A stretch of DNA of 64,000 bases, from NCBI GenBank assembly GCA_964016885.1, contig OZ024756.1, positions 29,636,001-29,700,000 of the forward strand, given 5' to 3'. A model generated the notes under the pieces. It had not been told where the DNA came from. It saw only the letters and a program-made list of their open reading frames with translations, and made no database searches. The position numbers and the translations under genes are program-made. Of this stretch, positions 29,935 to 30,116 are shown piece by piece. How positions within the stretch are numbered: the stretch's first letter is position 1; each line of letters begins with the position of its first letter. The DNA comes from Eledone cirrhosa (lineage: Eukaryota).

Positions 29935-30116
29935 TGTAGGAGGTGAGTTTTATTGTAGTACAATAAAGCAATGCAGATATCGGATAAGAAGCACTCTACA
30001 GTTTGTAGGACTGGAGTATACATAATATATAAGATCAAAAGATGGTTAAAAGAGTTCCATGTATTTTATAAAATACATGGAACTCTTTTAACCATCTTTT
30101 GTTCTTATATATTATA
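29935..30116 (-). mobile_element. Family C element, spacerless fold-back
   Basis: Palindrome centred at 30068/30069 (GTATTTTA|TAAAATAC). Confidence 0.88.

Follow-up and report, generated by a model that had tools for sequence, protein, structure and literature searches.

The insertion at 29935 in this stretch of Eledone cirrhosa DNA consists of two head-to-head arms of a Penelope-like element (PLE), inserted in a (TA)n array (29935–30119), and both of its arms stop exactly at the first base after the predicted cut of the hammerhead ribozyme encoded by the family. Judging from the sequence of the insertion and from counts of related joints across the genome, we think it probable that twin priming produced the insertion, on an RNA with a 5′ end generated by its own hammerhead. 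Joints at the cut are a minor route beside far commoner joints at position −124, which is likely a capped transcription start.

Both arms of the insertion stop at the predicted ribozyme cut

The window, by which we mean the whole 64,000-nt stretch of DNA analysed (contig OZ024756.1, assembly GCA_964016885.1, positions 29,636,001 to 29,700,000), contains the insertion and two further copies of the same family. Positions within the element are given relative to the predicted ribozyme cut, counting the base that follows GCGCATA as +1.

29782..29933: target (TA)n, to the left of the insertion (from the sequence and the microsatellite ends of family tails)
29934..30069, minus strand: main (long) arm, running from +1 (30069) through PLE pLTR and tail to about +133, where target (TA)n follows (from blastn and the sequence)
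30068..30069: head-to-head joint, a 2-nt AT common to both arms, with no loop or extra base
30068..30119, plus strand: short inverted arm, from +1 (30068) to about +52, its 3′ end in an internal TATATATTATA motif merging into (TA)n
22072..22519: second family copy, head-to-head, ribozyme in both arms, joint near −128/−130 (22333–22337)
22403..22473, plus strand: predicted type I hammerhead, with CUGAUGA core at 22411, long stem II, GAAA and palindromic helix III UGCGCA
15342..15549: third family copy, in which a short inverted arm (about −52 to +44) abuts a long arm starting at about +44 with almost no overlap (ends by eye)

The spacerless palindrome that had been noticed near 29935 is real. 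Its perfect 33-bp arms meet between 30068 and 30069, with GTATTTTA on one side of the centre and TAAAATAC on the other, and it widens to about 52 bp with a single mismatch (30035/30102) before merging into (TA)n. By blastn the long arm (30069–29934) matches a natural full-length unit found elsewhere (locus L095) at 100% identity across 136 nt, and a shorter TA/TG run (30120–30137) lies on the other side of the insertion. Everything 5′ of +1 is missing from this copy. The original prediction placed its fold-back within about 2 nt of the cut, and the actual match is tighter, both arms reaching at most exactly +1 and sharing the AT.

The position of the cut is read from the copy at 22072–22519, which has CTGATGA at 22411 and GAAATGCGCATT at 22454–22465; cleavage is predicted between 22465 and 22466 and would leave a 5′-OH RNA end beginning AUAAAAUAC. 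Sequences of family arms contain the CUGANGA and GAAA core of a type I hammerhead, an NUH triplet (AUA) and stems I–III. The core (CTGAYGA/GAAATGCGCATA) is kept in 107 of 116 arms, and the 8-bp stem I, in which −63 to −56 pairs with +1 to +8, is intact in nearly all of them, with a pairing-preserving G-U/A-U switch at −62/+7 (83 vs 32). A scan at the Rfam gathering threshold gave no hits to the predicted hammerhead, and the minimum-energy single-strand fold leaves helix III open (z −1.43). Cleavage had been predicted after AUU; the position stands and the triplet does not, AUU being a variant of the 22072 copy and AUA the family triplet. Indeed, base −1 is A in 129 of 130 unselected arms and the AUU allele occurs in none of the 130. 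We had considered the natural TTATAA palindrome of the 22072 copy as the cause of the joint, and it is ruled out because none of these arms has the AUU allele.

The family shows motifs of Hydra-clade PLEs

Across the 3.0-Gb genome a 30-nt motif from the family's tail has at least 10,402 exact matches, and a motif at +14 to +34 has 22,694. At L095 a pLTR-ORF-pLTR copy with a 3.7-kb unit carries an unbroken 798-aa ORF, whose translation shows, by eye, FD..., MG...L and YRDDG motifs and a C-terminal IYEC...YFGST stretch. It also holds SDKT (the Hydra-clade DKG to DKT change), RW in the form RLRWI, with the K not kept, a CxCX5C linker (CNCPVKNKC), CxxC (CNLCLNE) and CxH (CLH). Atlas look-alikes of the ORF score 0.95–0.98, and a fraction of the members carry HTH_animal, GIY-YIG and RVT_1; searches of Pfam and of PDB sequences with the 798-aa ORF gave no hits. 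The hammerhead lies in the pLTR and insertion is into (TA)n, both traits of the Hydra clade, and 83 of 89 family tails end in a TA/CA microsatellite, the remaining 6 running on into the ORF. By motif description we assign the family to PLEs with Hydra-clade motifs.

Among 89 main arms, 12 (at L037, L048, L055, L057, L081 and other loci) leave the reference at exactly −391 and share a common upstream sequence; these copies are a subfamily with a different 3′ UTR. The window also contains other repeats. At 14802–15194 an unrelated second head-to-head element in (TA)n has inner arms that match perfectly over 93 bp, short duplications in its 40-nt spacer and, on each arm, a hammerhead-like core (CTGATGA...GAAA); it is likely another PLE family and offers a ready replicate for the joint count. 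A perfect spacerless palindrome at 50813–50860, with 24-bp arms centred on GACGTC, lies about 70 nt from a (TA)n run and has no further copy within the window. Inverted repeats of 319 bp (99%) around 478 nt at 27154–28269 are flanked by (TA)n and have an 84% relative at 11333–11628; they are either MITE-like or another inverted retroelement. Short hairpins with 24–33-bp arms occur at 2714–2853, 23664–23746, 37091–37188 and 51087–51184, the arm of the one at 23664 resembling a repeat beside the family copies at L028 and L095, and a long tandem array with 4/8/12-nt periodicity and strong strand skew runs from about 2893 onward.

Identical joints accumulate at the cut

Genome-wide we found 40 joints at the cut (gap 0–6), of which 23 are identical to the joint in the window, one of them being the window's own. 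The others, by gap, are AAT/ATT (8), ATAAT/ATTAT (5), ATTAAT (3) and ATATAT (1), and gaps of 0, 1 or 4 do not occur among the 40. Against the 23 exact joints at +1/+2, eight control AT/TA dinucleotides span 0 to 6, namely 2 at −58/−57, 0 at −57/−56, 1 at −24/−23, 3 at −2/−1, 0 at +2/+3, 2–3 at each of +6/+7 and +7/+8, and 6 at +27/+28 (p = 0.0012 for 23 against the highest control). Control searches of the same design gave 3 joints (−57/−56), 8 (+27/+28) and 4 (−24/−23) as compared with 40 at the cut, and the control interval that contains the +6/+7 and +7/+8 sites gave 19 joints in all. The anchors used are 78% conserved at the cut and 93, 88, 95 and 74% conserved in the four control designs, so that three of the four controls equal or exceed the cut; broader intervals (80 joints at +14 to −2, 33 at −37 to −51) have unequal anchors and stand outside the main test. 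Because 23 identical joints compare with 0–6 at eight controls, the joint at +1 is not a matter of chance, and +1 is likely a genuine RNA 5′ end.

The 40 cut-site loci have flanks that all differ where unique flank is readable (one flank is unreadable in 2 of 40), and they comprise several haplotypes, which rules out one palindromic master that was repeatedly copied. Long and short arms are combined at 39 of the 40. None of the 40 joints carries an extra G or C, as fits an uncapped RNA end, and we consider it probable that the RNA end at the cut stems from cleavage.

We considered whether the joints could form at +1 with no special RNA end there, through microhomology end-joining, or later collapse of longer palindromes, favouring AT. 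Natural micro-palindromes do attract joints: by eye, 27 of the first 50 listed joints (68 in total) within about 7 nt of the cut centre on the TGCGCA quasi-palindrome, in which case the cDNA must have passed the cut, and in a separate list of joints at +14 to −2, 5 of 50 centre on CCATGG. Nor are the control AT sites all empty, as the 6 joints at +27/+28 show. Against this, the family allele (AUA) pairs only 2 bp at the centre of the joint, comparable dinucleotides yield few joints at each of eight sites, and the 6-bp natural palindrome AATATT yields only 3 exact joints of 33 (by eye). It is thus very unlikely that the +1 end is nothing special, and an end-joining bias behind the joints at the cut is just as improbable.

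Twin-primed joins could also end at +1 if reverse transcriptase stalled on uncut RNA, either at the ribozyme junction or at helix III of a dimer. The 8-bp intermolecular helix III (AUGCGCAU, −9 to −2) is palindromic and starts 2 nt past the cut, and according to the passages of PMC4209133 that bear on it PLE ribozymes probably work as dimers and cleave poorly. In addition, 16 of the 40 allow a reading in which one arm goes 1–3 nt past the cut, and so can include bases −1 to −3, and clusters of arm ends at −9 to −11 and at +10 may be structure pauses. A stall would more likely give a smear over −2 to +1, however, and 23 of the 40 joints stop exactly at +1 on both arms; one further joint (ATATAT) mismatches the −1 base on both arms. 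We give stalling a small probability and continue to favour cleavage as the source of the +1 end.

Joints are far commoner at −124, a likely capped start

The ends of unselected arms were read on one contig (C1), at 89 of its first 100 listed tail matches, and the counts leave out a first DNA search that was biased to long copies. Most main arms (74 of 89) read through the ribozyme beyond the cut, 21 end at −122 to −130, 8 end at +41 to +57, where the second primer sits, and none ends at −3 to +3. The 43 short inverted arms have a fixed 3′ end near +53, and 22 of them end at −124/−125 and 1 at +1. An inverted arm that starts instead at an internal CA/TA run behind the ORF was found in 5 of 89 cases; at L036, L045, L051, L079 and L090 such arms consist of ORF sequence with the 3′ end at the CA/TA run that closely follows the stop codon (about −1050), which is likely a third priming site. 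One-sided arm ends at +1 number 3 of 24 and 3 of 24 non-indel loci, an approximately twofold excess, or, by eye, 8 and 9 of 100 listed entries, with −9 to −11 and +10 as common or commoner; we looked for a sharp one-sided peak at +1 in these lists of one-sided ends and did not find it. The peak of fold-back points that the original prediction expected at the cut exists locally, among the joints, while unselected main arms have no ends there.

Head-to-head joints at −124 (gap 0–20) number 1,515 genome-wide as against 40 at the cut, with similar anchor conservation. The idea that fold-back at the cut is the general origin of the palindromes is not supported, given this number and the main arms that pass the cut, and the proposed footprint of ribozyme activity in vivo, which the local joint peak, the varied flanks and haplotypes and the lack of extra G/C support, is confined to a minor class of copies.

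At −124 the element reads TTTC immediately followed by ATATGTTG, and a pyrimidine-A start is typical of Pol II initiators. Among the first 50 listed joints at −124, we counted by eye 19 with an ATAT overlap, 4 with AT, 8 with one ambiguous G/C and 12 in which an extra base is unambiguous, either G preceding −124 or C following the end of the cDNA. Because −124 falls within a natural CATATG palindrome, the 19 ATAT joints do not by themselves establish an RNA end. The relevant part of PMC4859970 takes untemplated G at the ends of full-length L1 and SVA copies for a cap that was copied, and for Drosophila Penelope a promoter and start have been mapped inside the pLTR, according to the portion of PMC2377424 concerned. 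From the untemplated G/C and the context, −124 is likely a capped transcription start.

The inverted arm behaves as a separate, internally primed cDNA

Of 19 copies in which only the short arm extends to −124, 11 have C as the following base where the element has G (p = 0.002), some of these C's also being shared with the partner arm, and a CATG spacer, with C on one arm and G on the other, occurs in 2 of 12 spaced joints. Arms that barely overlap or do not overlap were seen in 10 of 189 pairs, a fraction that shows existence and not frequency, since the 189 are all loci fetched and many were chosen by joint type; the copy at 15342–15549 is of the twin-priming form. In many copies the inverted arm reaches beyond the main arm, and in some it lies wholly 5′ of it. 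In one of the 10 pairs (L046/L136) the inverted arm alone ends at +1 and the main arm stops at +81. The two starts of inverted arms (about +53 and the CA/TA run behind the ORF) are both able to pair with a (TA)n target. The C in 11 of 19, the 10 pairs and the end at about +53 are what is expected of twin priming, in which the inverted arm is an independent, internally primed transcript.

The two arms of a pair have a haplotype in common: they differ at 29 of 1,541 polymorphic site-pairs, as compared with 518 expected for random pairs, and 40 of 55 long arm overlaps have no difference at all, with no haplotype blocks. In the 29935 copy the arms have an A/T difference at +35, and 5 of the 40 cut-site loci have a common-allele difference. 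These differences had suggested two different RNAs as the rule, a reading that the 29 of 1,541 rules out. The common haplotype rejects random RNA pairs and fits one RNA copied twice, sister RNAs or self-copying. Some head-to-head pairs (L039/L040, L058/L059, L005) have a long tail on both arms, from which it follows that both primers can use the +133 site, requiring two passes or two RNAs.

The original prediction was of a self-cleaved RNA copied to its 5′ end, with a cDNA that then snapped back and primed its own copying. The first half of this is supported by the local peak at the cut and by joints of the uncapped type; the snap-back half is not supported. A snapped-back inverted arm would copy the main-arm cDNA behind a hairpin loop, and the joint in the window has no loop; a zero-loop hairpin is not known to prime. 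A zero-loop joint would require untemplated A's, and a lone extra A (gap ATA) is found in 0 of 40 joints. Inverted arms have a cap-type C of their own and may lie wholly 5′ of the main arm, pairs with little or no overlap exist, and in L227 and L136 the arm that ends at +1 is the short one. L227 (one arm at +1, the other at +7/+8) nevertheless has a geometry that could come from a hairpin, and the shared haplotype is compatible with self-copying, although not diagnostic of it. In the parts of the literature that bear on this, low-frequency snap-back joints occur with R2 (PMC11331408), and self-priming has been proposed for PLE palindromes, on an antisense template (PMC3846280). Snap-back, a single copying of cleaved RNA followed by fold-back of the cDNA 3′ end to prime its own copy, is on this evidence unlikely, and we retain twin priming.

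A proposed model for double copying of the RNA

A presumed cap, cleavage, order of priming and annealing would connect the observed anatomy, counts, haplotypes and extra bases as follows. The GIY-YIG endonuclease would nick both strands of a (TA)n target, one 3′ end priming at +133, where the tail ends, and the other within the TA-rich internal site (+45 to +53). Both cDNAs would run to the 5′ end of the RNA, the second pass displacing the first or using a sister RNA from the same locus, and their 3′ ends would anneal via the terminal self-complementary AT or ATAT and be repaired. Capped RNA would give the −124 class of joints (ATAT or AT overlap, cap-derived C/G) and ribozyme-cut RNA exactly the TTTT-AT-AAAA joint; the cut would be the RNA end in about 2–3% of double run-offs (40 vs 1,515). 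The main-arm ends at +41 to +57 support a two-primer model because the second primer sits there.

We lean towards extending this to PLEs in general, such that an RT dimer uses two fixed TA-rich sites on one sense RNA to extend both nicked strands, and the cDNAs are joined at its 5′ end, so that thousands of joints would map both the capped start and a hammerhead that cuts a few percent of germ-line templates. Consistent with this possibility, the text of PMC11167929 concerned with the anole PLE in vitro describes nicking and extension of both strands, two start sites that define the tail, a predicted dimer and the use of mostly unprocessed RNA. Against cleavage at the cut, it reports that no anole RNA-seq reads began or ended there.

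The joints point to a sense, capped template that is copied twice and make ribozyme-cut templates countable. The element, the ribozyme and the inverted arms are of known kinds, and the proposed mechanism and footprint of the cut are new; a full-text literature search, thin on subscription papers and without supplements, found no published statement of either.

Comparison with known systems

The family shares with the Hydra-clade C-terminal EN+ PLEs, as described in the relevant sections of Craig et al. 2021 (PMC8557442), a single ORF with RT followed by endonuclease, the DKT and RW motifs, CxCX5C, CxxC and CxH, a pLTR ribozyme, (TA)n targets and an inverted 5′-truncated copy with an optional tail. 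It differs from them, in the same sections, in its 3.7-kb unit (generally under 3 kb in the clade), in RWI in place of RWK and in a tail of about 80 nt as compared with 30–40.

Head-to-head PLE palindromes have been explained by self-priming on an antisense template, which the passage concerned in PMC3846280 leaves for experiment; the twin priming on sense RNA proposed here differs from it. As far as the corresponding part of PMC4209133 goes, PLE ribozymes are weak and dimer-dependent, with a role that lacks in vivo evidence, and the first part of a retrozyme preprint says nothing on joints. The Poseidon PLE of Anolis resembles the Eledone family, in the pertinent text of Frangieh et al. 2024 (PMC11167929), in its two internal RT start sites that define the tail, nicking and extension of both strands, AT-rich targets and unprocessed RNA as main template. 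That text reports no RNA ends at the ribozyme cut and leaves the inverted arm unexplained, whereas in Eledone genomic joints mark the cut and link the two start sites to the two arms.

In the Eledone PLE, unlike L1, the arms often both reach the RNA 5′ end and so form a palindrome, the priming sites are fixed and TA-rich, and there is no poly(A). Twin priming of LINE-1 was reportedly described by Ostertag and Kazazian in 2001, and L1 twin-priming arms are mostly non-overlapping. What the two systems share, by the part of a review that covers LINE-1 (PMC4859970), is internal priming by a second strand, which yields an inverted 5′ arm, together with main arms that often stop at the second primer and an untemplated G that marks the capped full-length end. 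With the HDV-like ribozyme of R2, in the portion of PMC3774820 concerned, the family has in common that genomic 5′ junctions reflect the position of cleavage. R2 cleavage defines the normal 5′ end, however, whereas the cut in the Eledone PLE marks only a few percent of events, is predicted to be made by a hammerhead ribozyme and has a second cDNA as its partner in the joint.
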